From IMG/VR virus record IMGVR_UViG_2609459769_000020: DNA of 10,526 nucleotides; one strand, given 5' to 3'. This stretch comes from a virus. Taxonomy: Duplodnaviria; Heunggongvirae; Uroviricota; Caudoviricetes. A program made the translations under genes and the position numbers. How positions within the stretch are numbered: position 1 is the stretch's first letter; every line of letters begins with the position of its first letter. This document shows positions 1 to 10,526 of the stretch, piece by piece. The notes below the pieces were generated by a model, which was not told the origin of the DNA, did no database searches, and saw only the letters and a program-made list of their open reading frames with translations.

Positions 1-546
1 CGTTTCCCGTAAACCGACGTTATCGATAAAAGCCCCTTTATCCGGAATGTCTGCGCCGTTCTGCTCCCTGCGCAGGTAACGGTTATCACCTTCGCTTTTG
101 CTGTAAACATCCAGATTATTACGGGCGGTTCCCTTATTCTCCAGGTCGGCGAGATTCTGATCCTTCGCCAGGGCATTAACGTCAGCGGGACCAAGACTGT
201 TTTTTGTGGCAAGCGTCCCCAGACCAAGATAACCACGGGCCAGACGCTGGGCCTCCGCACCGGCATCAGCAATTTCTTTCAGGTTATTTTTCCGGGAAAA
301 GGCATTCGCAGCGATAATGGCTTTAATGGACAGCGTAAGCTGGTTTAACTGCGCCTTATCCGGCTGAATACTGGCTTCAGCCAGAATATTCAGCAGTTCG
401 GCCTGGAGAATATTCAGCCAGTCCTGACCAATCCAGCTGATACCTTTTTGTCCGTCACCTTCGGTAAACCAGGTGGTGGTATTACTCTGCGCCGGTGCCA
501 GCGCAGGCATATTCGCCACGCCGGAATTATTATCAACATGAAACAT
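1..546 (-). CDS. Phage tail fibre protein, N-terminal portion (5' end in window at 546; continues past position 1)
   Basis: Absent from the ORF track because it runs off the edge. My own minus-strand translation from ATG 546..544 is open for 182 codons to position 1: MFHVDNNSGVANMPALAPAQSNTTTWFTEGDGQKGISWIGQDWLNILQAELLNILAEASIQPDKAQLNQL...RGYLGLGTLATKNSLGPADVNALAKDQNLADLENKGTARNNLDVYSKSEGDNRYL... SD GAGGAG lies about 9 nt upstream. The WFTEG...DWLN..Q.EL and LGLGT.AT...NNLDVYSKSEGD motifs match my memory of enterobacterial phage tail-fibre N-termini. Confidence 0.6.
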   Translation of the reverse strand, partial: MFHVDNNSGVANMPALAPAQSNTTTWFTEGDGQKGISWIGQDWLNILQAELLNILAEASIQPDKAQLNQLTLSIKAIIAANAFSRKNNLKEIADAGAEAQRLARGYLGLGTLATKNSLGPADVNALAKDQNLADLENKGTARNNLDVYSKSEGDNRYLRREQNGADIPDKGAFIDNVGLRET

Positions 547-686
547 TAAATAGTCTCCTCTTCATGGCTGTTTGCATAAACGTAAATAAACGTCTGCCAT
601 GCAGGCTTATAACGGTTCAGAATACATTCCAGCGCACCGCCTTCATAAATACGCAGCGGCGTGAGAATATCATCCAGCACATTCAT
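546..686 (-). CDS. Small ORF (46 aa) bridging the gemA-like stop and the tail-fibre start; possibly a remnant 3' end of a baseplate/tail gene rather than an independent gene
   Basis: My translation: MNVLDDILTPLRIYEGGALECILNRYKPAWQTFIYVYANSHEEETI. Its ATG (686..684) overlaps the gemA-like stop and its TAA (548..546) overlaps the tail-fibre ATG (TAATG). No recognisable family. Confidence 0.25.
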   Translation of the reverse strand: MNVLDDILTPLRIYEGGALECILNRYKPAWQTFIYVYANSHEEETI

Positions 687-886
687 ATTCCGGTAACCGG
701 CTTCTGACGCACTTTAAAACCGCGTTTTTTGAAAACATCCAGCACGCGGGATAACTCATCCGGTGACATATCCCGGCAACTGGGTTTGCCGGTGGCTGCC
801 AGTAGTACGGATGTGTAGGTCTCATGGTCAAGCTGTAGATCGCGTTTTGCGACATGTATTAAGGTAATCAGGGAAGCGCGATTCAT
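683..886 (-). CDS. gemA: GemA-family (Mu gp16-like) protein, apparently truncated (67 aa)
   Basis: ORF-track protein MNRASLITLIHVAKRDLQLDHETYTSVLLAATGKPSCRDMSPDELSRVLDVFKKRGFKV... fits the GemA/DUF1018 N-terminal pattern (LIHVAKR.L.LD.ETY...TGK.S...MS..EL..VL..FK..GF) as I recall it. SD GGAGA lies upstream of the ATG at 886. I recall family members being considerably longer (over 100 aa); here the frame stops right after the conserved N-terminal block. Confidence 0.5.
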   Translation of the reverse strand: MNRASLITLIHVAKRDLQLDHETYTSVLLAATGKPSCRDMSPDELSRVLDVFKKRGFKVRQKPVTGI

Positions 887-950
887 TATCGTGTCTCCGT
901 AACAACAGGCGGCATGGCAACGCCGCCCGGATAAAACTAAAGGTATCGAT

Positions 951-1361
951 ATGAAAATAGATTACGATGAAGTATTAAGTATTCTCACAACTTTTCAGGA
1001 TGCTGAAACACCTTTCCTTACACTACAGGATCTGGGCATGGCTGAGGCAGAAGGAGAGGAAAAGGATAAAAAAGTTTTTCATCTTATGCTTCTCGCTGAT
1101 AATGGCTCAATTGTTAATGGTGATATGCAGTCAGAAACACCCAAATATATTGGTTTCTTTTTCCATTCTCTGGGCGTTGGTTTCAGAAACACGCCCATTA
1201 TGCTTACCCAGCAGGGGCATGATTTAGCTAACGCCCTGAGAAAAAAACCAATCCTTGAAAGAATCAAAAAGGAGTTTACAGACGCACCATTTGATCTAAT
1301 TAAAGAAGTTACCAAATCAATGTTAACCAGGTTCGTCAAAGAACGTATTGGGATTGACTGA
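951..1361 (+). CDS. Hypothetical protein (136 aa), opposite-strand insert; possibly DUF2513-like
   Basis: ORF-track ORF with AAAGG about 7 nt upstream of the ATG. Visibly more AT-rich than neighbouring phage genes and the only convincing plus-strand gene inside the minus-strand operon. The LTQQGHDLANALRKKPILERIKKEF segment faintly recalls small prophage-associated DUF2513 proteins; unverified. Confidence 0.5.
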   Translation: MKIDYDEVLSILTTFQDAETPFLTLQDLGMAEAEGEEKDKKVFHLMLLADNGSIVNGDMQSETPKYIGFFFHSLGVGFRNTPIMLTQQGHDLANALRKKPILERIKKEFTDAPFDLIKEVTKSMLTRFVKERIGID

Positions 1362-1631
1362 ACAACTTAATTCAGCCAGTAATCGCAGGGCGGCGACAGC
1401 CGCCTGCTTGTCACTTCTTTTAGCTATTTCCGCAAGAGTATGCACAATCCATAACGGACTTAACGCCACGGCTGAATCCAGAATCATGTCATCCATAATA
1501 ATTTCTGGCATATCCCGCTTGTCACATTCTTTATCCATAAAAGAAACGAATTTCTCTGCATCTTCCGGTTTCATGCCTCCGGCGATAAGGATTTTGCGAT
1601 ATTCATAAGACGATCTTAATTCAATACTCAT
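1323..1631 (-). CDS. Hypothetical protein (102 aa)
   Basis: ORF-track ORF with ATG at 1631 and SD AGGTGA upstream. Its 3' end overlaps the plus-strand gene by 39 nt. No recognisable motif. Confidence 0.45.
   Translation of the reverse strand: MSIELRSSYEYRKILIAGGMKPEDAEKFVSFMDKECDKRDMPEIIMDDMILDSAVALSPLWIVHTLAEIAKRSDKQAAVAALRLLAELSCSVNPNTFFDEPG
1385..1429 (+). terminator. Candidate intrinsic terminator for the plus-strand gene
   Basis: GCAGGGCGGC (1385..1394), loop GACA, GCCGCCTGC (1399..1407): a 9-bp GC-rich stem with one bulged G, followed by the T-rich stretch TTGTCACTTCTTTTAGCTATTT. It works only in plus orientation and lies inside the convergent minus-strand ORF 1323..1631. Confidence 0.25.
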
Positions 1632-1646
1632 TATTCACCTGCCTGC

Positions 1647-1997
1647 TTAATCTGTTTCCAGTGCTTTGCTACGGGCTATAGCCTCACATTCAAAAAATAC
1701 CGACTCCGGCACGCGCTCTTTTAATTCACGAACAAGGAAATCATTAACGCGTTCATGACGTCTTATATTTCTTTCCTTTTCCTCCTGGCGCAATACAGCA
1801 AGGCGGTATTCAACAGCCCGGCGTTGTTTCTGAAAGACAGCCAGTGCTTTTCTGGCAGCATTACGCCATGCATCATCGCCACATGGTGCGTATTCAAGCT
1901 GAAATTTAATCTCTTCAATAGTTTCTTTGATTTTTGCCAGCAAGCTAAGACAGTCGCTTATTGTCTCCAGCTTTTCATTATCAATATAACTTCTCAC
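1647..1997 (-). CDS. Hypothetical protein with predicted coiled-coil character (about 116 aa from revised start)
   Basis: The track ORF 1647..2039 starts at a GTG with a 46-nt overlap into the upstream gene. An in-frame GTG at 1997..1995 sits about 6 nt after a strong SD GGGAGGTGA and overlaps the upstream TGA, so I place the start there. Charged heptad-like sequence (KIKETIEEIKFQLEY...RLAVLRQEEKERNIRRHER). Confidence 0.5.
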   Translation of the reverse strand: MRSYIDNEKLETISDCLSLLAKIKETIEEIKFQLEYAPCGDDAWRNAARKALAVFQKQRRAVEYRLAVLRQEEKERNIRRHERVNDFLVRELKERVPESVFFECEAIARSKALETD

Positions 1998-2323
1998 GCA
2001 TTCACCTCCCGTAATTCCGGTAAAGCCGAAATATGACACCAGTGCGTCACCTGTCCGTCTTCATCTTCAAGGCAGGCTCCGGTTTCTTCATCAACAAAAA
2101 AGCCTTCATACCCCATATGGCCGATGCGCAGCTCCTGACGGTGACCATACTGAACAATCAGCACGACAGCCTCCATATCAGGTGGGAAAGCATCATTCAG
2201 TGAATGCCAGGGATAACCGCGTAAATCCCCGAAATAAACACCGGTCAGCGTTCCGCCACAGAGCGGCATTCCGGCGGCACACACAAGAGGTTCATCTGAT
2301 TCAACAAATAAGGTCGTTATCAT
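1994..2323 (-). CDS. Hypothetical protein (109 aa)
   Basis: ORF-track ORF; its ATG overlaps the upstream stop (ATGA coupling at 2320..2323). No recognisable motif. Confidence 0.5.
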   Translation of the reverse strand: MITTLFVESDEPLVCAAGMPLCGGTLTGVYFGDLRGYPWHSLNDAFPPDMEAVVLIVQYGHRQELRIGHMGYEGFFVDEETGACLEDEDGQVTHWCHISALPELREVNA

Positions 2324-2871
2324 GGCGTTAACTCCCGTAATACAGCGTCCTCGGCAGTCCGGCGACGGTAATAAACTGCGTGAGCAGAATGTTCAGATAT
2401 TCCAAACTTTTCGCCAATTTCCCGGAATGACAGACGGCGTGGGTAATCGGAATCACGCAGCGCACGTATAAGACGTACATCATCATCAGATATGCGCGTG
2501 CCGGGGCGTAACTCTCCGCACTTTGTTAATCCAGCACCAATCATTCCTGCCCGACATCTGACAGAATCTTTATTACGTCCGAGATATTCTCCCATTTGCT
2601 GGCAGGTCATTGTTCTGGCATTTTTTCGAATAAACTTATCTTCATCAGGTGTAAATCTTGGGTGTTTATATTTCAGTAACTCCGGGTATGAACTGCGCAA
2701 TACACCAGTCCGGTTATATACAGCCCAGACAGTTCTTTTTATTCTGGCAGCAATATCCTTAACCGGGGTGGATGAATAAAGCGCAATCAGTAGCGCATCT
2801 TCTTCAGGTGTCCACGCGCGGACATGAGCGGGTGTACGACCTTTTCGCCCCATGTGTTGTAAAATCATCAT
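2320..2871 (-). CDS. Putative DNA-binding regulator: two Myb/SANT-like repeats plus a C-terminal HTH resembling the Mor/C activator family
   Basis: ORF-track protein (183 aa). Repeats WTPEEDALLIALY...IAARIKRT and FTPDEDKFIRKN...MGEYLGRNKDSVRCR; C-terminal SDDDVRLIRALRDS...LSFREIGEKFGISEHSAHAVYYRRR. SD GGGGGTGA upstream of the ATG at 2871. Confidence 0.55.
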   Translation of the reverse strand: MMILQHMGRKGRTPAHVRAWTPEEDALLIALYSSTPVKDIAARIKRTVWAVYNRTGVLRSSYPELLKYKHPRFTPDEDKFIRKNARTMTCQQMGEYLGRNKDSVRCRAGMIGAGLTKCGELRPGTRISDDDVRLIRALRDSDYPRRLSFREIGEKFGISEHSAHAVYYRRRTAEDAVLRELTP

Positions 2872-2874
2872 ACA

Positions 2875-3390
2875 TCACCCCCTGACTCGCTTTTCGGCAG
2901 CATAAAACTCATCAGACAGAATTTCGGTCATTTTCCGTTTTGCGGAATCATCTTCGCACTGAAGATAAATCACATTGTCAACGCAGAACCAGTTCACGGG
3001 ACCATACAATATTGCTGAGAAGTCAATACCCAGCCAGAACAACAGGGCATCGGTTCTGGCATACGTGACGGGCGAATATTCACGCCACAGACTGTTCAGT
3101 TCATCAGAGGCAACACGCAGGGCTTTAGGGATACGTGATGTGCGCGGTGTGCAGCTCCAGCCATTCGACGCAGTCGGTTTTCGCCATAAGTCGCGATGAA
3201 AAGGATATTTGTCCTCCGTAAAACGCAGTCCCTTAAAACAAAAACCACTGATACTGAATTCAAATACCGACCGGCACGCAACATTCAGCACGGCCTCAAG
3301 GCGTTTCGCCTCATCTTTTACCGTCTGGCAGTCCTGCTGGTATTTTTGCCACGCAGCCAGCGCGGAAGGGTTTGATGTTTTAAAGAACAT
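2875..3390 (-). CDS. Hypothetical protein (171 aa)
   Basis: ORF-track ORF with SD GGAGGTG upstream; its ATG overlaps the upstream TAA (TAATG at 3390). No recognisable motif. Confidence 0.5.
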   Translation of the reverse strand: MFFKTSNPSALAAWQKYQQDCQTVKDEAKRLEAVLNVACRSVFEFSISGFCFKGLRFTEDKYPFHRDLWRKPTASNGWSCTPRTSRIPKALRVASDELNSLWREYSPVTYARTDALLFWLGIDFSAILYGPVNWFCVDNVIYLQCEDDSAKRKMTEILSDEFYAAEKRVRG

Positions 3391-3923
3391 TACGCCACCT
3401 CCGCAGATATCCCGGCAGGCGCTGCTGTCCGGTCAACAATCAGGTAGCGCAGAACACGCGCGGTGATATTCCAGCCGCTTAAACCGCAGATGATGACACC
3501 CAGGCGAATGTCGATATACGCCATCACAAACTGGGGCACGCCTTCTTTCATGGCCTGCTCATCAACTTCAGCCACCACATAAACGGTTTCACAGGTCAGA
3601 ACGCCCTGAGCAAATTCCCACGCCATCGACGGAATATCATGCCCCTCAATCCATGGCAGGGATTTTCTGAAGCTGCACCACTGAACATCATCAGCCGCAG
3701 ATTCCTGTCTGCATTTGCGACGAATCGGCTGCACCGGGCGGGAACGCGGAATATCATAAAAACCGTTACATTCCGTCAGCACCCCGGCATCAACCGCATC
3801 ACGCAGAAAATAAACCATGGAGGATGGCGGCATATTCATTTTTTCAGCCAGTACGCCGCAGGTCAGACGCCCGTAAATACTCAGCCAGTTTTTAACCCCT
3901 TCAAGCACTTTTGCATCAATCAT
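3390..3923 (-). CDS. Hypothetical protein (177 aa), possible N-terminal winged-helix DNA-binding domain
   Basis: ORF-track ORF with strong SD GGAGGAA upstream of the ATG at 3923. The N-terminal segment LAEKMNMPPSSMVYFLRDAVDAGVL is HTH-like; this is a weak call. Confidence 0.5.
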   Translation of the reverse strand: MIDAKVLEGVKNWLSIYGRLTCGVLAEKMNMPPSSMVYFLRDAVDAGVLTECNGFYDIPRSRPVQPIRRKCRQESAADDVQWCSFRKSLPWIEGHDIPSMAWEFAQGVLTCETVYVVAEVDEQAMKEGVPQFVMAYIDIRLGVIICGLSGWNITARVLRYLIVDRTAAPAGISAEVA

Positions 3924-3926
3924 GAA

Positions 3927-4469
3927 TTATTCCTCCGTCAGCGCCACATATTCAGAATGTTTAATTTCCTGGCATTCTTCAGGAATACATCCGTTTATTT
4001 CCCTGCCATAAGCGCCCACTTTAAACACCACGCACAGGGCATCACGGGAGAACGAAGGGGTCCACCAGGAGTCCGTGTTAAACATGGAGGGGATTCTCAT
4101 TACCCCCAGCTTTTCACAGAGCCAGACAAGGAAATCAGGACGCTTTCTTAACTCGCGTTCAGCGGCTTCAATCATTGCGGCAATCGCCGGTCCTTCAGGG
4201 CATGACTCATCAGGTCTGGCTATAAAGCACTGTCCGCCACCGATAAAAGCCACATCATCGCGCTTACGCCAGCCCGCAGGCAGAGCACCGGCAAAATAAA
4301 ACTCACTGATTCTGTCCATGGCGAACGGCTTTAAGCGCAATCCGGCAGCGCCTGTATTTTTCAGTAATGTCCGAAGAATACTGTTGCGTAGCGGTAAAAC
4401 AGCCTGTTGATATTTGGTGAAATATTTATTTGTCTGCACACGGTCTAATTTGAAATAAAAATATGCCAT
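3927..4469 (-). CDS. Hypothetical protein (180 aa)
   Basis: ORF-track ORF with SD AAGGAA upstream of the ATG at 4469. First gene after the 97-nt AT-rich gap downstream of gam. No recognisable motif. Confidence 0.5.
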   Translation of the reverse strand: MAYFYFKLDRVQTNKYFTKYQQAVLPLRNSILRTLLKNTGAAGLRLKPFAMDRISEFYFAGALPAGWRKRDDVAFIGGGQCFIARPDESCPEGPAIAAMIEAAERELRKRPDFLVWLCEKLGVMRIPSMFNTDSWWTPSFSRDALCVVFKVGAYGREINGCIPEECQEIKHSEYVALTEE

Positions 4470-4566
4470 ATTTCCGATTCCTTATTTTCAGCTTTCAGGC
4501 GCAAGCAGTCCCCTGACGCGAGCGCCATAATTAAAATGAAGTGATATTTAAATAATTAATGCGGTG

Positions 4567-5097
4567 TTATTTATTCAGTCCGGCATCCTGTTCAAAAGGC
4601 TCGACATAAAAACTTTCAGCGCCTTTATTCACCTTTATACCGGCAATGCCTTTCACCGCATCCGGCTCCGCCAGGACGGCTTCCTTGTTCACTTCCTCTT
4701 TCGTGCGGATGAATCGCTCAAGCCCCATACGGCGCAGCGTGTCAATCACACCTTCCACATCACGGCTGACGCTGCATGATGGCGTTCCCAGCCGCCATGA
4801 CACCGTTCCGGTGGTCAGATTGGCAGTTTTGGTTTTGCCGCCGTTCGTCAGCTCATCACGGTTGGTTTTACACCAGTCCTGAATCCCTTTAAAAAGCACT
4901 TTGATTTGCTTTTTAAGATTTTCAATCTGCGGCGTATAACGGGCGGTGATTTCTGCCACTTCATCATTCATCGCCGTTTCCAGGCGCAGCGCCTCTCGCT
5001 GAATATCGCCCAGGGTGCGGATATCGCGGCTGACTTCTTCGCGGGTCTGCGGTGCGGCCTCGGCTACAGCCTTTAATTTTGTAACGCGTTTTGCCAT
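4567..5097 (-). CDS. gam: Host-nuclease inhibitor protein Gam (Mu Gam family, Ku-like DNA-end binding)
   Basis: ORF-track protein (176 aa) MAKRVTKLKAVAEAAPQTREEVSRDIRTLGDIQREALRLETAMNDEVAEITARY...CKTNRDELTNGGKTKTANLTTGTVSWR...ERFIRTKEEVNKEAVLAEP...EPFEQDAG closely matches my recollection of Mu Gam in length and in the LQREA.RLE.EMND, NRDELTNGGK.KTANL, RFIRTK.E.NKEA and PFEQ.AG blocks. SD AAGGA upstream. Confidence 0.8.
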   Translation of the reverse strand: MAKRVTKLKAVAEAAPQTREEVSRDIRTLGDIQREALRLETAMNDEVAEITARYTPQIENLKKQIKVLFKGIQDWCKTNRDELTNGGKTKTANLTTGTVSWRLGTPSCSVSRDVEGVIDTLRRMGLERFIRTKEEVNKEAVLAEPDAVKGIAGIKVNKGAESFYVEPFEQDAGLNK

Positions 5098-5108
5098 TTT
5101 GTTTTTCC

Positions 5109-5402
5109 TTATTGCAATGTATCTGGTGCGTTCTGCAAGGAGCGGCGCTCAATGCTGCTTTTCACCCCCAGAGCCTGCATGGAACCCTGAAGTTCATCTG
5201 TCAGAAACTGAATAATTGTGGGGCTGTGATATTTAAGAATTTGCGCATAAACATCACATGGGCCTGTCGGTCTGTTCTCCGTATCACGTTCGATTTTTAC
5301 AGTGGCAGTAACCCCCTCCGTGATTTCCTGACTATCATTACCGGCTGGCTTTACTTCATGCATTACGTGGTTAAATTCAAAAATAACGCGTACTTTGCTC
5401 AT
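5109..5402 (-). CDS. Hypothetical small protein, paralog 2 of a tandem pair (97 aa from revised start)
   Basis: The track ORF 5109..5429 has an internal ATG at 5402 placed 4 nt after the upstream TAA; this gives MSKVRVIFEFNHVMHEVKPAGN..., which parallels the N-terminus of the upstream gene. The two 5' ends also align at the DNA level. Confidence 0.45.
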   Translation of the reverse strand: MSKVRVIFEFNHVMHEVKPAGNDSQEITEGVTATVKIERDTENRPTGPCDVYAQILKYHSPTIIQFLTDELQGSMQALGVKSSIERRSLQNAPDTLQ

Positions 5403-5406
5403 GGAA

Positions 5407-5679
5407 TTACCCCTGCTGATTAAATTCATTACCGTTAATAACCCCGGAAGCCATGCCCCTGTCTTTCATGAATGCACTGGCTTTCATTGCCACAAGCTCT
5501 GCGAAGTTTCTGCTTTCCGCGAGCATAACCACCCCAAAAATCATGGCGGGTCCATCACCTTTCTGCTTTATCCCGGTTGAACGTATGTCCAGACTTACCC
5601 CCATGCGCACTGTTCCATCAGCGTTTTTATGGATAACGTGCTCCTTATATTCGAAAATAATGTGTACGACTTTACTCAT
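5407..5679 (-). CDS. Hypothetical small protein, paralog 1 of a tandem pair (90 aa)
   Basis: ORF-track ORF starting MSKVVHIIFEYKEHVIHKNADG...; its ATG overlaps the upstream TGA (ATGA). Confidence 0.45.
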   Translation of the reverse strand: MSKVVHIIFEYKEHVIHKNADGTVRMGVSLDIRSTGIKQKGDGPAMIFGVVMLAESRNFAELVAMKASAFMKDRGMASGVINGNEFNQQG

Positions 5680-5957
5680 CCTCTGGTCCTCGTTCTGTTT
5701 GGATAACTGACCCGGCGTCTGACCTCACGGCAGAACCGAATCATGGCATTAAAGGCTTCTTCCTCCGTCACCGCTTCCGGTATCCCCGGAACCAGTAACT
5801 GCTCCTGTTCATCACGTCCATGACGCGCCATAACCTCAATCACATGCCGTACCGTGGCAGGCTTTCCGGCAACTATCGGCAATGCACCTTCCGGCAGGAC
5901 GTAACCAAACTCAATAAGACCACTCGACCACGCCCATGCAATGAGATTTTTTTTCAC
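5676..5957 (-). CDS. Hypothetical protein (93 aa, GTG start)
   Basis: ORF-track ORF. The start is GTG at 5957, with a strong SD GGGAGGTG about 6 nt upstream. Confidence 0.45.
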   Translation of the reverse strand: MKKNLIAWAWSSGLIEFGYVLPEGALPIVAGKPATVRHVIEVMARHGRDEQEQLLVPGIPEAVTEEEAFNAMIRFCREVRRRVSYPNRTRTRG

Positions 5958-5958
5958 C

Positions 5959-6213
5959 TCACACCTCCCAGTAAACCGTGCAGCCGCTGATGCGGGTGGC
6001 CTTCACACGGCGGCGCAGGCCGTTGGTCTGTATGGTGATTTCAATTTCACCGGTTCCCTGCACGTTGCCTACCGGCGGCGTGGTTTTCAGTGCAAAACGT
6101 TGCGGATAGCGCTTACTGCGTTCCAGTACCGCACCGGCAAGTTCGGTCAGACGGCGCGCGCTGTTCAGGGAGTCGAATAAATTCATTTTGTTACCGCAGG
6201 ATTGCATATTCAT
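5959..6213 (-). CDS. Hypothetical protein (about 84 aa; start uncertain)
   Basis: Track ORF 5959..6225. The first ATG has no SD, whereas AGGTG precedes the internal ATGs at codons 5 and 7, so the start is more likely 6213 or 6207. Confidence 0.35.
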   Translation of the reverse strand: MNMQSCGNKMNLFDSLNSARRLTELAGAVLERSKRYPQRFALKTTPPVGNVQGTGEIEITIQTNGLRRRVKATRISGCTVYWEV

Positions 6214-6225
6214 ATAACACCTCAT

Positions 6226-6447
6226 TTAGCTGACTTGTTTCGCACCAACAGAACGGCATATTCCGCTGTAAACTTCTGTCGCACCTTCGCGATCAAGTCC
6301 GGCAGATATCACCATTCGTGTGCGGTCATTAAATTCAAAAAGTAAATCGCCACATTCTTTATTTTCGGCCAGTGAAATCACCTTCACGTTATCGAAATTA
6401 ACCAGGTAAAAGCGTCCGTAAATATCAGGAATATTAAATACCGCCAT
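6226..6447 (-). CDS. Hypothetical small protein at the position of Mu kil (first gene after B); function not established
   Basis: Track ORF 6226..6453 begins at a GTG. An ATG at 6447 with SD AGGTG 7 nt upstream sits 2 nt after the B stop codon. The kil assignment is by position only. Confidence 0.4.
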   Translation of the reverse strand: MAVFNIPDIYGRFYLVNFDNVKVISLAENKECGDLLFEFNDRTRMVISAGLDREGATEVYSGICRSVGAKQVS

Positions 6448-6449
6448 AA

Positions 6450-7391
6450 TCACACCTGTGAGAGTAATTCAGGGTTGGTATAAACCTCTTTAAAGGCCGC
6501 ATTAATATGTTTTTCTGTCAGCGCCGCGCCTTCACCGCTGGCGGTGAGCCACGCCTGGTTAAGCGTATGTGTCAGAACGCGTAACGCTCCCGGCTTTTCA
6601 GCGATAGCCTGCATGACGGCCAGCTCGGCCTCACCACTGATCCCCCACGCCATGGCAATGGCCAGCACATCCGCCTTTTTGGCCTTGCGAAGTTGTTTTG
6701 TACGGGCAAGACGGCTGAACAGGCGCGATAAATCATCAAAGGCGCGGCGTCCACCTTTAAACAATCCGCGCGGGTTACCAATAAGCACCATCCCGATCCC
6801 CGTGGCGTCCTGAATTGCCCGGAGTTGCTCCAGACCGTCAATACCAAGATGATCCGCCTCATCCACAATCACCAGTCCACGCGTTCCCATCAGGCGACGG
6901 CGGATGGCGCGGGATAATGCCCCTTTGTTCGCGCGGGTGTAATCAATCCCCAGCGCATCGGCCAGCTCCAGCAGACACTCCGTGACGCTGGAGTGCGCGG
7001 GTGACAGGGTGATCATCCAGGTGTTTGGTTGCTCCTGGCAGTAATTACGGGCAGTGGCCGTTTTACCCACACCCGGTACGCCCACAATAACGTTAATACA
7101 GCCCATCAGGCGAACCGCCTGAAACAGTGCGCGCAGCTCCTGGACTGTCTGAGTTTCCACAAACTGCGGCGGTTCCGGCAGTGCGCTTTGTTTATTCCAG
7201 TTCTCATACCAGGAGCGCAGGGAAGCAGCCACAGCAGCGTTATCGCCTTTATATTTTCCCTTACGGAAAGCCGATAATGTGCCGTCGGAAATTCCCGCCT
7301 CTCTGGCGATGGCATACTGCGTCAGTACGCCGCCATCAATAAGTTCATCAATGGTCTTGATTACATCGTTAATATCGGTCATATTATTCAC
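6450..7391 (-). CDS. B: Mu B-like ATP-dependent target DNA activator (AAA+ transposition ATPase)
   Basis: ORF-track protein (313 aa). Walker A GVPGVGKT and Walker B LVIVDEADHL are present, and the N-terminal HTH-like segment and overall length match my recollection of Mu B (312 aa). The track start is GTG at 7391; an ATG at 7382 preceded by GAGG may be the true start. Confidence 0.85.
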   Translation of the reverse strand: MNNMTDINDVIKTIDELIDGGVLTQYAIAREAGISDGTLSAFRKGKYKGDNAAVAASLRSWYENWNKQSALPEPPQFVETQTVQELRALFQAVRLMGCINVIVGVPGVGKTATARNYCQEQPNTWMITLSPAHSSVTECLLELADALGIDYTRANKGALSRAIRRRLMGTRGLVIVDEADHLGIDGLEQLRAIQDATGIGMVLIGNPRGLFKGGRRAFDDLSRLFSRLARTKQLRKAKKADVLAIAMAWGISGEAELAVMQAIAEKPGALRVLTHTLNQAWLTASGEGAALTEKHINAAFKEVYTNPELLSQV

Positions 7392-7464
7392 CTCGCTTGA
7401 GACAGCATTCTCCGAGACTGAAACCTCAAATAACCTGAGTCACCCCTCGGGTTATTTTTTTATT

Positions 7465-9555
7465 TCAGGCCAGCGGATCACTTTCTTTTAATTTCGCTTC
7501 GAGCAGTTGCAATCCCCGCTGGAAATTACGCTCGTATTCTTCATCAGGTTCATCGTCAGCGACCGGTTGCTGAACGGTCACCGTATTACCCACAGGGCGG
7601 TATATGTTTTCCAGCCAGGGCTCCTGCGGCTTGTGCTCCAGCACGTTGACAACCTCATCCTCGGCATCACGGATTTTTTCCTCTGCGCGTTTACGCATGC
7701 CTTTAAGGCGCTGCTGCTGTTTGTAGTATTCCGCGCTGACAGGGAAGGCTTCGCGTTTATTGCCGTCCCATACCGCCTCGCAAATCACGCTGCCATCCGG
7801 GCGGCGCACGGTAATTCGTTCGGCATCATGAATGTCATAGCTGATAAGTACCTTACGGCCATGCTCGTCACGCAGCTCGGGCGCGTAGTAAATATTATTC
7901 AGCCAGCGTATTTCACAGCGTCTTACAGGGCGCTCCACCATCGGCCGGAACATATCCCGCAGTTCAACATCGGACAGCCATTCAATTTCCGTGTCCTCTT
8001 CCGCCAGGCGTTTTTTTCTGAACTCCGCCGGGCTGTAATGTTTACCGTTCGGCTTCATGGGTAATTCATCGTGCGGCCGGTTGTTGTACCACTCAACACC
8101 GTCACGAATGGCATCAATCAGTTCAGACCAGGACGGTAAATCACGCATCGCTGACTGCTGCCGGGCGTTCAGCCGTTTGCCCTGTTGCAGGGCACTGAAT
8201 GCCGAGCGTAAATCGCGGTTGGTTTTACGTAACGTCTCGCGATCTGCTCCTTTCCCGAAATAGGTGCGGTATTTACGGGCTATGCGCATCGGTAATGTGC
8301 GGTTAAGCCGTTCGATAATGCCCCGTCCCTGCGGATTACCGGCAATCCCTGTCGGGTGATTAATCCCCAGTCGTGGCAGTATCCCCACAATCTCCTTATC
8401 CAGGACGTCGGCGGTTTCCCCGGAGCCATTATCCGAGTAATACAGAAACGGTTTGCCATGATGGCGAATACCGTGCTGTATGGCACCGGCTACGGCGAAA
8501 ACATTTTCAGCCAGGTCAAGACTCCAGCCCACCACAAAGCGCGTGCCACCGTCGATAACAAAGGTCACTTCCGGTGCGAATGGCCGCCCGTGAACCGGGT
8601 GCGCGCATTTCAGCTTCATGCCGTGACCGTCACCAATCCAGACATAATTCACCGGCATTCTGGACCAGTCGCGGCGCGTGAATCCCTCAAGCTGACGGTA
8701 TTCACTGCCAGTTACCCGGCCTTTTTGTTTCACCACTTCCGGCAGTTTCTTCATTGCGCGGCGAATGGTGTCATAAGAGGGCATGATATCGAGCATATAA
8801 GGCTCATCAGCGTGCCGGTGCTGCCATTCAGCAACAAAATCCTCGTAAGCCTCGGTCATTGGTCGGCCGTTTGACTGGCGATACTGCGCCAGAAATTCGG
8901 GCAGCCAGTTAATATCTTCGGCTTTTATTTCCTGGCGTTTACCCGGTGCCAGTAAAAGCAGGCGTTCAGCGGCGTTCTGTGCCTTGTTAAAGGCCGCAAT
9001 CCAGCGTTTCAGCGTGATTTCACTCAACGCGCGGCTGTTTCCCTTTTTGGCGTTCGCCGTCTCAACCATTGCCACAATGCGCTCGTCCAGTTGTGATCGT
9101 GCCAGGCTGTTAACGAGGAACCGGATAGCCTTAGCGCAACTAAAGCCGGGTTGTTGCGCGATTTTCAGCACCTCGCTGACGATCGCTATTCGTGCCTCTG
9201 CCACTTTACGTTGGTTTTCAGTCAGGGCATTGAGGCGTTCGACCATCAGTTGGGGTGATCCGCGATATGCCTCCACCGCATCAACCACGGCAGGTGAGCG
9301 TCTGGCCTTTGTCACCACCGGAGCCGGTGATTCATCGGCTTTTTGCGTCATCAGTTGCAGGGCGTAGCGTTCACGTAATGCCTGCTGCGTCACTTCAGGT
9401 AAACAGTCGATGCTGTATTCAGTTGCTTTAGAGCCTGAGCGACGACGGGAACAACAGCTTTTCCCTTGTACGTAACGTTGTAATGCCTGGCGAATACCTT
9501 TTGTTGTAGCAGGCATTCCGGGCGCGCCAATCAGTTCTTTTGCAATGACATACAT
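7465..9555 (-). CDS. A: Mu A-like DDE transposase
   Basis: ORF-track protein (696 aa). Candidate catalytic DDE triad in the segments WIGDGHG, YYSDNGSG and GRGIIERLNRTL, with spacing consistent with the Mu A/retroviral-integrase fold. Position is immediately downstream of ner (the ner stop and A start are 1 nt apart). Confidence 0.85.
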   Translation of the reverse strand: MYVIAKELIGAPGMPATTKGIRQALQRYVQGKSCCSRRRSGSKATEYSIDCLPEVTQQALRERYALQLMTQKADESPAPVVTKARRSPAVVDAVEAYRGSPQLMVERLNALTENQRKVAEARIAIVSEVLKIAQQPGFSCAKAIRFLVNSLARSQLDERIVAMVETANAKKGNSRALSEITLKRWIAAFNKAQNAAERLLLLAPGKRQEIKAEDINWLPEFLAQYRQSNGRPMTEAYEDFVAEWQHRHADEPYMLDIMPSYDTIRRAMKKLPEVVKQKGRVTGSEYRQLEGFTRRDWSRMPVNYVWIGDGHGMKLKCAHPVHGRPFAPEVTFVIDGGTRFVVGWSLDLAENVFAVAGAIQHGIRHHGKPFLYYSDNGSGETADVLDKEIVGILPRLGINHPTGIAGNPQGRGIIERLNRTLPMRIARKYRTYFGKGADRETLRKTNRDLRSAFSALQQGKRLNARQQSAMRDLPSWSELIDAIRDGVEWYNNRPHDELPMKPNGKHYSPAEFRKKRLAEEDTEIEWLSDVELRDMFRPMVERPVRRCEIRWLNNIYYAPELRDEHGRKVLISYDIHDAERITVRRPDGSVICEAVWDGNKREAFPVSAEYYKQQQRLKGMRKRAEEKIRDAEDEVVNVLEHKPQEPWLENIYRPVGNTVTVQQPVADDEPDEEYERNFQRGLQLLEAKLKESDPLA

Positions 9556-9556
9556 A

Positions 9557-9805
9557 TCATGACGCCTTTCTCATATAGCTCTTAACCTGGTATCGACTGG
9601 GCCAGATTTCTTCAGGTGATACCCCAAGAGCATCAGCAATTATTTGCTGATACGGTCGGCAAGGAGTACGTAATACGCTTTTCAGCGAATCCCTGCTGTA
9701 ACCAGCCTTTAAAGATAAAGAGCGCAGTGATAAGCCAGCCATGTGTAAGCGCGCCTTGATGATTTCAGGCGGCCAATCGTGATCTGAAACTTCTCTTCTA
9801 CTCAT
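9557..9805 (-). CDS. ner: Ner-like DNA-binding protein (Mu Ner / E. coli Nlp family)
   Basis: ORF-track protein (82 aa) ...DWPPEIIKARLHMAGLSLRSLS...QQIIADALGVSPEEIWPSRYQ... matches the recalled Ner/Nlp pattern, including the C-terminal IWPSRY block. SD GAGGAAG upstream of the ATG at 9805. Confidence 0.8.
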   Translation of the reverse strand: MSRREVSDHDWPPEIIKARLHMAGLSLRSLSLKAGYSRDSLKSVLRTPCRPYQQIIADALGVSPEEIWPSRYQVKSYMRKAS

Positions 9806-9995
9806 ACTTCCTCTATTCTAAAAAGTTACCCGCGCGGATATTCGTGCGGATATCTGTACGGGTAAATAATGCATCACCAAAAATACCAAATCAAGGTATT
9901 TTTGGTATTTTGGCTAATTTTTGCTTTTATCCTTATTTTTCAATTGGATAAATAGAAAGAAACCTTTCCTTAGAAAAGCACCAAGAGGTATCTTT
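9806..9995. promoter_or_regulatory. Divergent repressor/ner control region (operators and promoters for early and repressor transcripts)
   Basis: A 190-nt AT-rich gap between divergent regulator genes. It contains a tandem 8-bp direct repeat GCGGATAT (9834..9841 and 9846..9853) and a perfect 12-bp inverted repeat plus a further half-site copy. A TAGAAT -10-like hexamer sits on the minus strand just upstream of the ner SD. Exact promoters were not resolved. Confidence 0.6.
9876..9906. repeat. Perfect 12-bp inverted repeat ACCAAAAATACC-N7-GGTATTTTTGGT, candidate operator
   Basis: Read directly: 9876..9887 and 9895..9906 are exact reverse complements with a 7-nt spacer. A third direct copy GGTATTTTGG overlaps at 9904..9913. 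Confidence 0.6.
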
Positions 9996-10526
9996 ATGTC
10001 GCAGGGAAAAGAACCTGTTATTGAACGTATTGGAATGCTTACAAAGCGCTACCCTTCAAGAAGTGCAGCTGCCAGAGCGTGGGGAATCAATATCAACACA
10101 TTAAACAGCTATTTCAAGGGAGGACAAACACAACCAGCCCCCAGAGAAAGTATCCTTATACGAATTTCTGAAAGTGAAGGCGTTAGTCTTGAGTGGCTTA
10201 AAGAGGGCAAGGGTGAATTACCAAACGATATTGGTATTTATGGTAATTTTGGTTGTTCTGGTGATAAGGGAGATCAGCTTACACAGATGCTTTCATTCCT
10301 TACGAAAGACGAACGAGAACAGTTAACCAATCTCCTTGCTCGCAAAGGTGTGGAGACGGTTCTGACACTGCTGAATAAAGAAAACCAGGATTTATTACAA
10401 CTAGAAGGCAGGAAGCGCCTGGCTGCGTTGATGATTGTAGATATGCCAGACGATTGCGTCAGAGAGATTTTGGAAAAAACCGAGACAAGTAGGCAATCAA
10501 ATCCGGTAGAATCTAAAGCGGGTTAG
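9996..10526 (+). CDS. Prophage repressor (functional and positional analogue of the Mu/D108 c repressor)
   Basis: The track ORF 9921..10526 has an internal ATG at 9996 preceded by SD AAGAGG, which I take as the start (176 aa, MSQGKEP...). N-terminal HTH-like segment with GVSLEWLKEGKGE, typical of phage repressors; the C-terminal helical region loosely resembles the Mu c C-terminus. Divergent from ner. The TAG stop falls on the last three bases of the window. Confidence 0.7.
   Translation: MSQGKEPVIERIGMLTKRYPSRSAAARAWGININTLNSYFKGGQTQPAPRESILIRISESEGVSLEWLKEGKGELPNDIGIYGNFGCSGDKGDQLTQMLSFLTKDEREQLTNLLARKGVETVLTLLNKENQDLLQLEGRKRLAALMIVDMPDDCVREILEKTETSRQSNPVESKAG

Follow-up and report, generated by a model that had tools for sequence, protein, structure and literature searches.

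A defective Sp18-like prophage of Escherichia coli with a deletion joint at a recurrent TA site

Results

Three open reading frames on the left side of the window

The DNA analysed here, called the window below, was the whole stretch of 10,526 nt of IMG/VR record IMGVR_UViG_2609459769_000020, and it was compared with 5,426 complete Escherichia coli genomes. On its left side, three open reading frames (ORFs) followed each other on the minus strand: a gemA-like ORF of 67 amino acids (aa) at 683..886, a 46-aa ORF at 686-546, and the 5' part of a tail-fibre gene at 1..546. The TGA of the first overlapped the ATG of the second as ATGA at 686-683, and the TAA of the second overlapped the ATG of the fibre gene as TAATG at 548-544. 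This arrangement was the one given in an earlier note made from the sequence alone. By DNA comparison with intact relatives, the window was shown to be the early region of an Sp18-like (Mu-like) transposable E. coli prophage with an internal deletion, and the joint of this deletion lay at a TA dinucleotide that was also used in other deletions of the family.

Of the 119 positions of the GemA profile (PF06252), the 67-aa product matched only 1-45 (E=7e-11). A 170-aa full-length relative spanned positions 1-119, and a protein with the complete GemA domain would have approximately 170-185 aa. The 170-aa gp16 of strain JKHS016 agreed with the product in all of residues 1-64 and not in its last three, which were foreign. 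The gene, a truncated gemA/gp16 designated gemA', was made up of 64 authentic codons, three out-of-frame codons derived from gp48, and a stop. Judged from its sequence, the product is a fragment of a GemA family member and not a short member of the family, and the truncation assumed in the earlier note was borne out by the profile search. The first 60 residues were also matched by phrog_8067, a profile only 65 positions long, which suggests that other phage genomes also contain annotated gemA genes in truncated or split form.

The 3' remnant of gp48/ymfQ was located at 546..695 on the minus strand and contained the 46-aa ORF and three further gp48 codons up to the joint. The ORF corresponded to residues 141-186 of the 186-aa YmfQ (Mu gp48) with 100% identity, and it matched phrog_203, a baseplate wedge subunit, at positions 164-207 of 224 (E=6e-11). 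There was no Pfam match to the 46-aa ORF; full-length gp48, of approximately 186 aa, matched PF10076 (Phage_Mu_Gp48). The alignment identified the ORF as the C-terminal remnant of gp48. The 67-aa and 46-aa ORFs are gene remnants and not genes in their own right, and each of them, the supposed "GemA" included, is best annotated as a pseudogene fragment.

The 182 codons of the fibre gene ran off the window at position 1. Their product matched phrog_1833, a tail fiber protein, with E=1e-104 at profile positions 1-182 of 322, so that the assignment to a tail-fibre family held. The full gene was 293 aa long in longer contigs (L010 and L029) and in the prophage of strain TOE17, and the L010 version matched phrog_1833 with E=7e-141. 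Its position, after the baseplate gene and before the Caudo_TAP and Resolvase genes, was that of a tail-fibre gene.

Deletion relative to intact prophages

BLAST was performed with the window against the complete genomes. Positions 1-704 matched YmfQ and the fibre gene of Mu-like prophages, and positions 690-1500 matched gp16 and the DUF2513 gene. The matches to 1-704 and 690-10526 mapped to separate loci, and none of the 5,426 genomes spanned the joint. In intact prophages, such as those of STEC2018-553 and TOE17, gp16 and YmfQ were approximately 22 kb apart, with mor and the lysis, terminase, portal, head, sheath, tube, tape-measure and baseplate genes between them. Since the flanks of position 695 matched regions 22 kb apart in intact prophages, the ORF arrangement was not a chance one.

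The TOE17 prophage was used as the reference. It was 39,088 bp long and inserted in cheB, with both ends seen and a target duplication of CCAAA. The window joined reference base 9636 to base 31948, with a loss of 22,312 bp, and the middle and late gene set (mor, lysis, head, tail) was absent together with reference 9638-31947. The deletion extended from gemA codon 65 to approximately codon 138 of gp48/ymfQ. The left 10.2 kb of the prophage and the last 150 bp or so of gp48 were retained, followed by the fibre gene. The earlier note had proposed an internal deletion that took out the 3' part of gemA together with mor, lysis, head and tail genes and brought the early region up against the 3' end of a baseplate gene and the fibre gene, and the DNA comparison supported this. 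Its alternative, a natural compact mosaic, was not supported, as the joint was flanked on both sides by pieces of genes whose full-length forms are found in intact phages.

Anatomy of the joint

The deletion joint CCGGTAACCGGCTTC at 690..704 was a hybrid of two quasi-palindromes, CCGGCTACCGG in gp48 and CCGGTTAACCGG in gemA. A three-way alignment placed the crossover at the TA of positions 694-695, the sequence up to 695 being that of gp48 and the sequence from 696 onward that of gemA. In gene orientation, the gemA parent read ...GAAGCCGGT TA ACCGGGCC..., the gp48 parent ...GAAACCGGC TA CCGGAATATG..., and the window ...GAAGCCGGT TA CCGGAATATG... The junction had been expected within a Mu-like baseplate gene, and it was indeed located there, just upstream of gp48 codons 141-186. 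Both parents had the form CCGG-N-TA-N-CCGG, a pattern that was counted three times in the 39-kb reference. The two parents thus shared short homology, exact at TA and imperfect over CCGG..TA..CCGG. This homology alone does not account for the reuse of the same base with unrelated partners, which is described below.

Recurrent breakpoints in the family

Other deletions were located by looking up the 46-aa ORF in public assemblies, where the same gp48 remnant was followed by the fibre gene. The identical gp48 base was the right endpoint of five independent deletions and was joined in them to five left partners, namely the kil region, the start of gp41, the transposase gene A, gemA, and the DNA-circularisation gene. 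Each of these joints was found in at least two assemblies with different genomic contexts, and at a distinct locus where host flanks were visible. At the exchange point, TA was present in all five left parents. Six different joints had as their left endpoint one site in A, at reference position 2116 (GGCCGGG TA ACTGG; some alleles have TG), and their partners were at reference positions 2395, 2446, 9886, 20493, 21701 and 31948. The sites at 28147 and 31743 were each used with two different partners. Among 20 mapped joints, approximately 15 had TA in both parents.

Where the parents differed, the base before TA came from the left parent and the base after TA from the right parent. This parental origin of the neighbouring bases indicated that the exchange took place within or at TA and not with a 4-nt stagger. 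A gyrase-like 4-nt staggered cut with subunit exchange was rejected on the same ground, as the rule held in every informative joint. The pattern CCGG.{0,2}T[AG].{0,2}CCGG occurred six times in the reference, and four of the six occurrences were breakpoints. Flanks of the form N-C-S-G-N were present in 12 of 32 half-sites, compared with 6.4% at all TA sites (p=3e-7; symmetrised).

In a further sampling, contigs were picked regardless of their structure, through sequence anchors at a distance of 40-110 nt from the sites. With the gp48 anchor, three of 22 IMG/VR contigs were broken in the 140 nt upstream, all at the hot-spot TA. Among seven metagenome contigs with this anchor, none was broken within 140 nt; two had joints further upstream in gp48, at approximately 31744 and 31693. 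For the anchor in A, the 170 nt downstream contained a single new break among 35 IMG/VR contigs, and it fell exactly on the A site. In the complete genomes, 228 of 230 records were intact across the gp48 site. Deletion derivatives are rare but stereotyped when present. A joint at a recurrent, sequence-specific breakpoint had not been foreseen in the earlier note, and in the literature searched, recurrent deletion sites were not reported for Mu-like prophages.

Several elements had undergone three or more such events, for example L125 and L036. L125 (QZLY01000953.1, 13,122 bp) was a complete Mu-like mini element of 12.5 kb with both ends and host flanks, and its internal joints were 2116|21701, 23900|27222 and 28148|31744. 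Since its transposase gene was truncated, it could move only with a helper. The prophage of JKHS016 (L001/L014; NZ_CP147059.1, approximately 919-951 kb) lay in a CP4-44-like island, a site different from that of the window. It was scrambled: a stretch of 6 kb had been inverted, with a TA joint, the head-morphogenesis genes had been lost, and the DNA-circularisation gene was fused with gp48. Its flanking pentamers, ATAAG and TAAGG, formed no clean 5-bp duplication. The flanking repeats of JKHS016 and L125 were offset by one base, an offset that would fit a 4-bp duplication or an ambiguity in the terminal A.

The right-hand part of 7.1 kb was also considered as a separately mobile module. Among the deletion types it had 1-5 differences in 5.3 kb, and intact prophages were similarly close, within 1-16 differences, so no conclusion was drawn. 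Other variation was seen in the family. A DNA cytosine methyltransferase gene replaced mom in 2013C-4081 (L130 13972-15024), an IS66-family element lay inside the DNA-circularisation gene in 23CRST047 (L131 727-3143), and IS1 was inserted in gam in one copy in TW14588 (L066 14772-15466).

Carriers, insertion site and extent of the element

The 40-mer across the joint was present in two IMG/VR contigs, which corresponded to the NCBI isolate contigs JONB01000034 and JONA01000087. The exact 67-aa product was found on at least 24 contigs in 33 index blocks, and these were 99.9-100% identical to the window. Its carriers were the E. coli isolates 3-020-07_S3_C1, 2-460-02_S4_C2 and GCA_009767305.1, Logan SRA assemblies, and gut metagenomes assembled with SPAdes or MEGAHIT. 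The joint was not found in species-representative genomes and JGI metagenomes. Two contigs, L003 and L005, reached the host flank and showed the same junction, with the left end TGTAACCAGG... in yddE next to nhoA. The Mu-like left end lay approximately 250 bp beyond the repressor gene c. Neither the host/left-end junction nor the deletion joint was present in the complete genomes. A single E. coli lineage carries the element, a defective prophage inserted in yddE next to nhoA. The element occupied one chromosomal site in both contigs that reached the host flank, and a second insertion site, which would mark a mobile derivative of mini-Mu type, was not seen.

The metagenome contig L010 ran past the fibre gene into an assembly-protein gene, a second fibre C-terminus, an invertase gene and a DUF6645 gene, collinear with TOE17. 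The earlier note had suggested extending the contig to see whether only such genes and a phage end follow; the fibre, assembly and invertase genes were found in L010, and the right end of the phage was not recovered. A scan of IMG/VR for yddE sequence past the insertion point gave nothing for the right end of this element. A scan with the right-end 47-mer gave 12 contigs, none of them from carrier genomes and none flanked by yddE. Of the defined ends, only the left one was seen in the window's element; both were seen in TOE17. In the Sp18-like family, the right end was ...GCGCTATA with terminal TA (L015-L026, L029-L031 and the TOE17 reference), unlike that of phage Mu, which terminates in CA. 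Where it abuts the rest of yddE, the right end of the window's element would read ...GCGCTATA + GCAAT + ACGTTGTG, which would give an element of approximately 16.8 kb with both ends.

The gix-like 26-mer TTCCCGTAAACC GA CGTTATCGATAA at window 4..29 lay at the outer edge of an inverted repeat that bounds the invertible fibre segment. We take this site to resemble the gix site of Mu, with the core GA/TC. The arms of the repeat were at L028 3550-3635 and 4797-4882, and window 1-24 mapped inside the left arm. Because positions 1-24 lie in this inverted repeat, nearly all contigs with the joint broke off near window position 1, at most a few hundred bases on. The segment was found in opposite orientations in L002 and TOE17. 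It contained two alternative fibre C-termini and one Caudo_TAP gene (L028 3028-5525; L010 3088-5585; L002 39787-42293). The Caudo_TAP gene pointed away from the expressed fibre in TOE17, JKHS016 and L010 and was co-oriented with it in STEC2018-553.

A second Mu-like element, L042 (IMGVR_UViG_2609459799_000018), was present in addition to that of the window in the genome of L004, and its deletions were A-site|9886 and 20070|31743. An exact 109-aa gp48 fragment was on record in two carrier isolates and TOE17, and it probably comes from an element like L042. In the nhoA-yddE-narV region, two independent Mu-like insertions were found less than approximately 1 kb apart in opposite orientations (L029 17004-19478; L003 1739-2852). 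One was the window's element in yddE and the other a DEC6 element in a narI-like gene. The left flank of the DEC6 element was a fimbrial usher gene and not the rest of the nar gene, which implied a larger rearrangement there.

Other genes of the window

All genes of the window were on the minus strand except two, the repressor gene c and the DUF2513 gene. The repressor gene (9921..10526, plus strand) was divergent from ner, its stop codon formed the end of the window, and it was called as 176 aa at the same position in all related loci. The intact early operon (1323..9805, minus strand) extended from ner to the semi-essential early ORFs ending at 1323. Its ORFs, all on the minus strand, included ner (9557-9805), the MuA-type transposase gene A with a product of 696 aa (7465-9555), the MuB-type ATPase gene B (6450-7391), gam (4567-5097), and those of the kil region. 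The early genes matched those of intact prophages in length and Pfam family, and HTH_Tnp_Mu_1, Mu-transpos_C and Phage-MuB_C were found on identical proteins. A divergent repressor and ner followed by a MuA-type transposase and a MuB ATPase is the Sp18-like order, and the early region was 99.92% identical to that of JKHS016.

The DUF2513 gene (951..1361, plus strand) lay on the opposite strand inside the early operon and outside the deletion joint, in a region of approximately 42-44% G+C. It was assigned from a PF10711 match and from the RefSeq annotation in JKHS016 and TOE17; the match falls under the curated cutoff (E=7e-5, 23.6 bits vs 29.6). It was situated between gemA and the upstream early ORFs, and STEC2018-553 had other small ORFs at that place. 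PADLOC gave no match of the DUF2513 product to known defence families and no matches among the early-region ORFs, and a defence function for these ORFs was rejected on this basis.

Discussion

Proposed origin of the joint

The locus as a whole is likely explained by a deletion in an Sp18-like prophage together with break-and-join at a recurrent TA site. The joint would be the product of illegitimate breakage and joining at two copies of a rare quasi-palindrome with GC clamps, CCGG-N-TA-N-CCGG. The exchange would have taken place inside the central TA, which hairpin prediction put in the loop of a short, GC-stemmed hairpin at many, but not all, of the mapped sites. We favour a sequence- or structure-directed cleavage at TA, either blunt or with a 2-nt stagger, followed by rejoining. 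This would probably happen when the prophage is abortively induced or replicates by transposition. As a tentative extension, a small set of internal TA sites with C-S-G flanks might be cut and rejoined by a dedicated activity. With the same caution, the strongest of these sites might be those in the transposase gene and in gp48. The transposase of the phage could supply this activity by acting on pseudo-sites, or it could come from a nuclease or recombinase of host or phage, as yet unrecognised, with a 2-nt TA core. If this were true, the family would produce recurrent and predictable deletion and inversion derivatives, that is, natural mini-Mus, and the window would be one of them.

Several observations weigh against the break-and-join explanation. 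The joints without TA in both parents carried CA/TG in three cases, AA in one and CC in one, and two could not be assigned. Only approximately 20 joints were mapped, and several came from the 46-aa-ORF search, which restricted detectable breakpoints to approximately 135 nt of gp48. With the gemA anchor, 32 IMG/VR contigs gave a break at the gemA site in the window's lineage only. The predicted hairpins were only moderately stable, with a median rank, scored with RNA parameters, at the 25th percentile of TA-centred windows. No candidate enzyme fitted well: the hot spots had no MuA-binding repeats at the spacing of true ends (+20), the flanks of at least 12 natural insertions did not follow N-C-S-G-N, and the gix site of the phage differed from the hot-spot sites in both core and half-sites. 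In addition, the right end of the window's element was not recovered, because contigs halt at the invertible segment, and its extent and mobility were deduced from the sisters L029 and L125.

Weighing of other explanations

Cleavage by the transposase, a MuA homologue, is an attractive but improbable candidate. The enzyme would cut after pyrimidine-A at internal pseudo-sites, and the 3'-TA ends would be rejoined crosswise, or nested adjacent deletions would be formed from a pseudo-end. The TA at the exchange point, or CA/TG in three joints, is the same as the terminal dinucleotides of the phage (5'-TG at the left end, TA-3' at the right end), and in the counts made here the flanks resembled the published Mu target pentamer N-Y-S-R-N. 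The gp48 site was always a fixed right endpoint and the A site always a fixed left endpoint, and single elements with several such events suggest a phage-specific process. However, no Mu end sequence was present at any joint and no YATTTGATACY binding repeat occurred at true-end spacing; pseudo-ends with transposase-binding repeats were rejected for their weak resemblance and wrong spacing. The hot-spot flanks were likewise rejected as mimics of insertion flanks, given the natural insertions described above. An end attacking a target would not need TA in the target, yet all left parents had it. The phage also encodes a Gin-like serine invertase, which might recombine quasi-sites, as Cin of phage P1 reportedly does. 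An identical 2-nt core in both partners is a signature of serine recombinases, and with a core as palindromic as TA, deletions and inversions would both be possible; the inversion joint of TA type in JKHS016 is an example of the latter. The invertase gene was kept in all deletion derivatives examined, but this was partly a result of how they were found. At window 4-29, the core of the gix site is GA/TC and its AAACC half-sites are A/T-rich, unlike C-S-G-N-TA-N-C-S-G, and no joint had a true gix or cix site as a partner or shared its core and half-sites; the core of the joints was TA with C-S-G flanks. Invertases of this family normally disfavour deletion. Recombination of Gin at gix was rejected because the sites were unlike that of the phage, and a role of the invertase on quasi-sites seems very improbable to us.

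Random slippage at microhomology, with the coincidence produced by ascertainment and selection, would involve no site-specific process. The two parental sites of the window share 10 of 11-12 bases (CCGG..TA..CCGG), the 46-aa-ORF search selects breakpoints just upstream of Met141, and deletions that start in A may have been selected for removing a lethal function. By our own estimate, however, approximately 700 perfect 10-nt direct-repeat pairs are expected in 39 kb, so the imperfect gemA/gp48 pair was not a favoured substrate. The kil-region partner shares only TA with the gp48 site and yet was joined at the identical base. Anchor samples, which were not keyed on ORF calls, showed breaks only at these bases, and selection cannot fix a breakpoint to one nucleotide. 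We consider slippage less probable than transposase cleavage and more probable than action of the invertase. A compact functional mosaic, such as a mini-Mu or satellite with transposition genes plus fibre and invertase genes kept by selection, would be favoured by the intact c, ner, A and B, by sisters in which both ends are present, for instance L125 (12.5 kb, in a 13.1-kb contig), and by stop/start overlaps that would allow fibre translation from an early transcript. The joint lay inside two genes and left out-of-frame fragments, it was found at a single insertion site, and other derivatives had lost A, so that no common functional design was conserved. A mosaic is, in our view, about as improbable as the invertase. 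Finally, an assembly chimera might be suspected, since all carrier contigs were shorter than 20 kb and 0 of 5,426 complete genomes had the joint. The contigs are short because an invertible segment lies 670 bp away and a second Mu-like element is present in the same genome. Misassembly was rejected, as the identical joint was found in many assemblies from different assemblers and samples, in both isolates and metagenomes. The sequence shared at the joint, two bases exactly and approximately 10 of 12 imperfectly, was far below any k-mer size. The probability of a chimera is close to nil. Break-and-join at a recurrent TA site in a deleted prophage was thus retained as the preferred explanation.

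Consequences for the element

The element had full-length c, ner, A and B and its left end. Mor and all late genes except the fibre module were lost, and without Mor and late promoters no particles should be possible, in agreement with the earlier note, which had called the element defective for particle production. The note had also supposed that it might be transposition-competent and fibre-expressing, and it may be both. No terminator-like site was found between gemA' and the fibre gene. The fibre gene, now at the 3' end of the early operon, would be transcribable only from the early promoter, and the overlapping stops and starts would make its translation from the early transcript possible.

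As a single object, the window's element is a decayed, ordinary defective prophage that is useful mainly for correct annotation. It is the pattern that matters, as independent prophages of a very common E. coli family lose DNA between the same few bases. Recurrent breakpoints would make prophage decay in this family partly predictable and would explain the origin of natural mini-Mu-like elements. They also give a simple assay handle for a cleavage-and-rejoining activity that was not described in the papers searched. Any follow-up is best directed at the recurrent, site-specific breakpoints.

Comparison with known systems

The closest relatives are Sp18 of E. coli O157:H7 Sakai and related prophages, whose genes are arranged in the same order and whose DNA is 94-99.9% identical over the retained parts. 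What they share forms two blocks, one of c, ner, A, B, kil, gam and gemA and a second of gp48, fibre, invertible segment, invertase, DUF6645, com and mom. The window's element differs from this type in the loss of 22.3 kb of middle and late genes, in the truncation of gemA and gp48, and in its presumed inability to form particles. The Sp18-type family has been described as common and transposable in Shiga toxin-producing E. coli (PMC7430833, PMC10132054).

The joints resemble those of DNA invertases at secondary sites (quasi-cix or quasi-gix) in that they are recurrent, have an identical 2-nt core, and include deletions and an inversion. However, the sites here are unlike gix, and no true gix takes part. 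Deletion hot spots associated with palindromes or hairpins are known, as is the joining of palindromes broken at their centre, and here too the breakpoints were at the symmetry centre of short GC-clamped inverted repeats, with the TA in the predicted loop. The stems in our case were only 3-5 bp, far under the lengths known to provoke such events, and several partner sites had no palindrome at all. Laboratory mini-Mu and the defective Mu prophages that survive induction ('X mutants') have internal deletions with the ends and early genes kept. The window's element is like them in this respect, and as with them a helper would be expected for packaging. In contrast to laboratory mini-Mu, it arose naturally, and what lies at its joint is no IS element or Mu end but a recurrent quasi-palindrome centred on TA.

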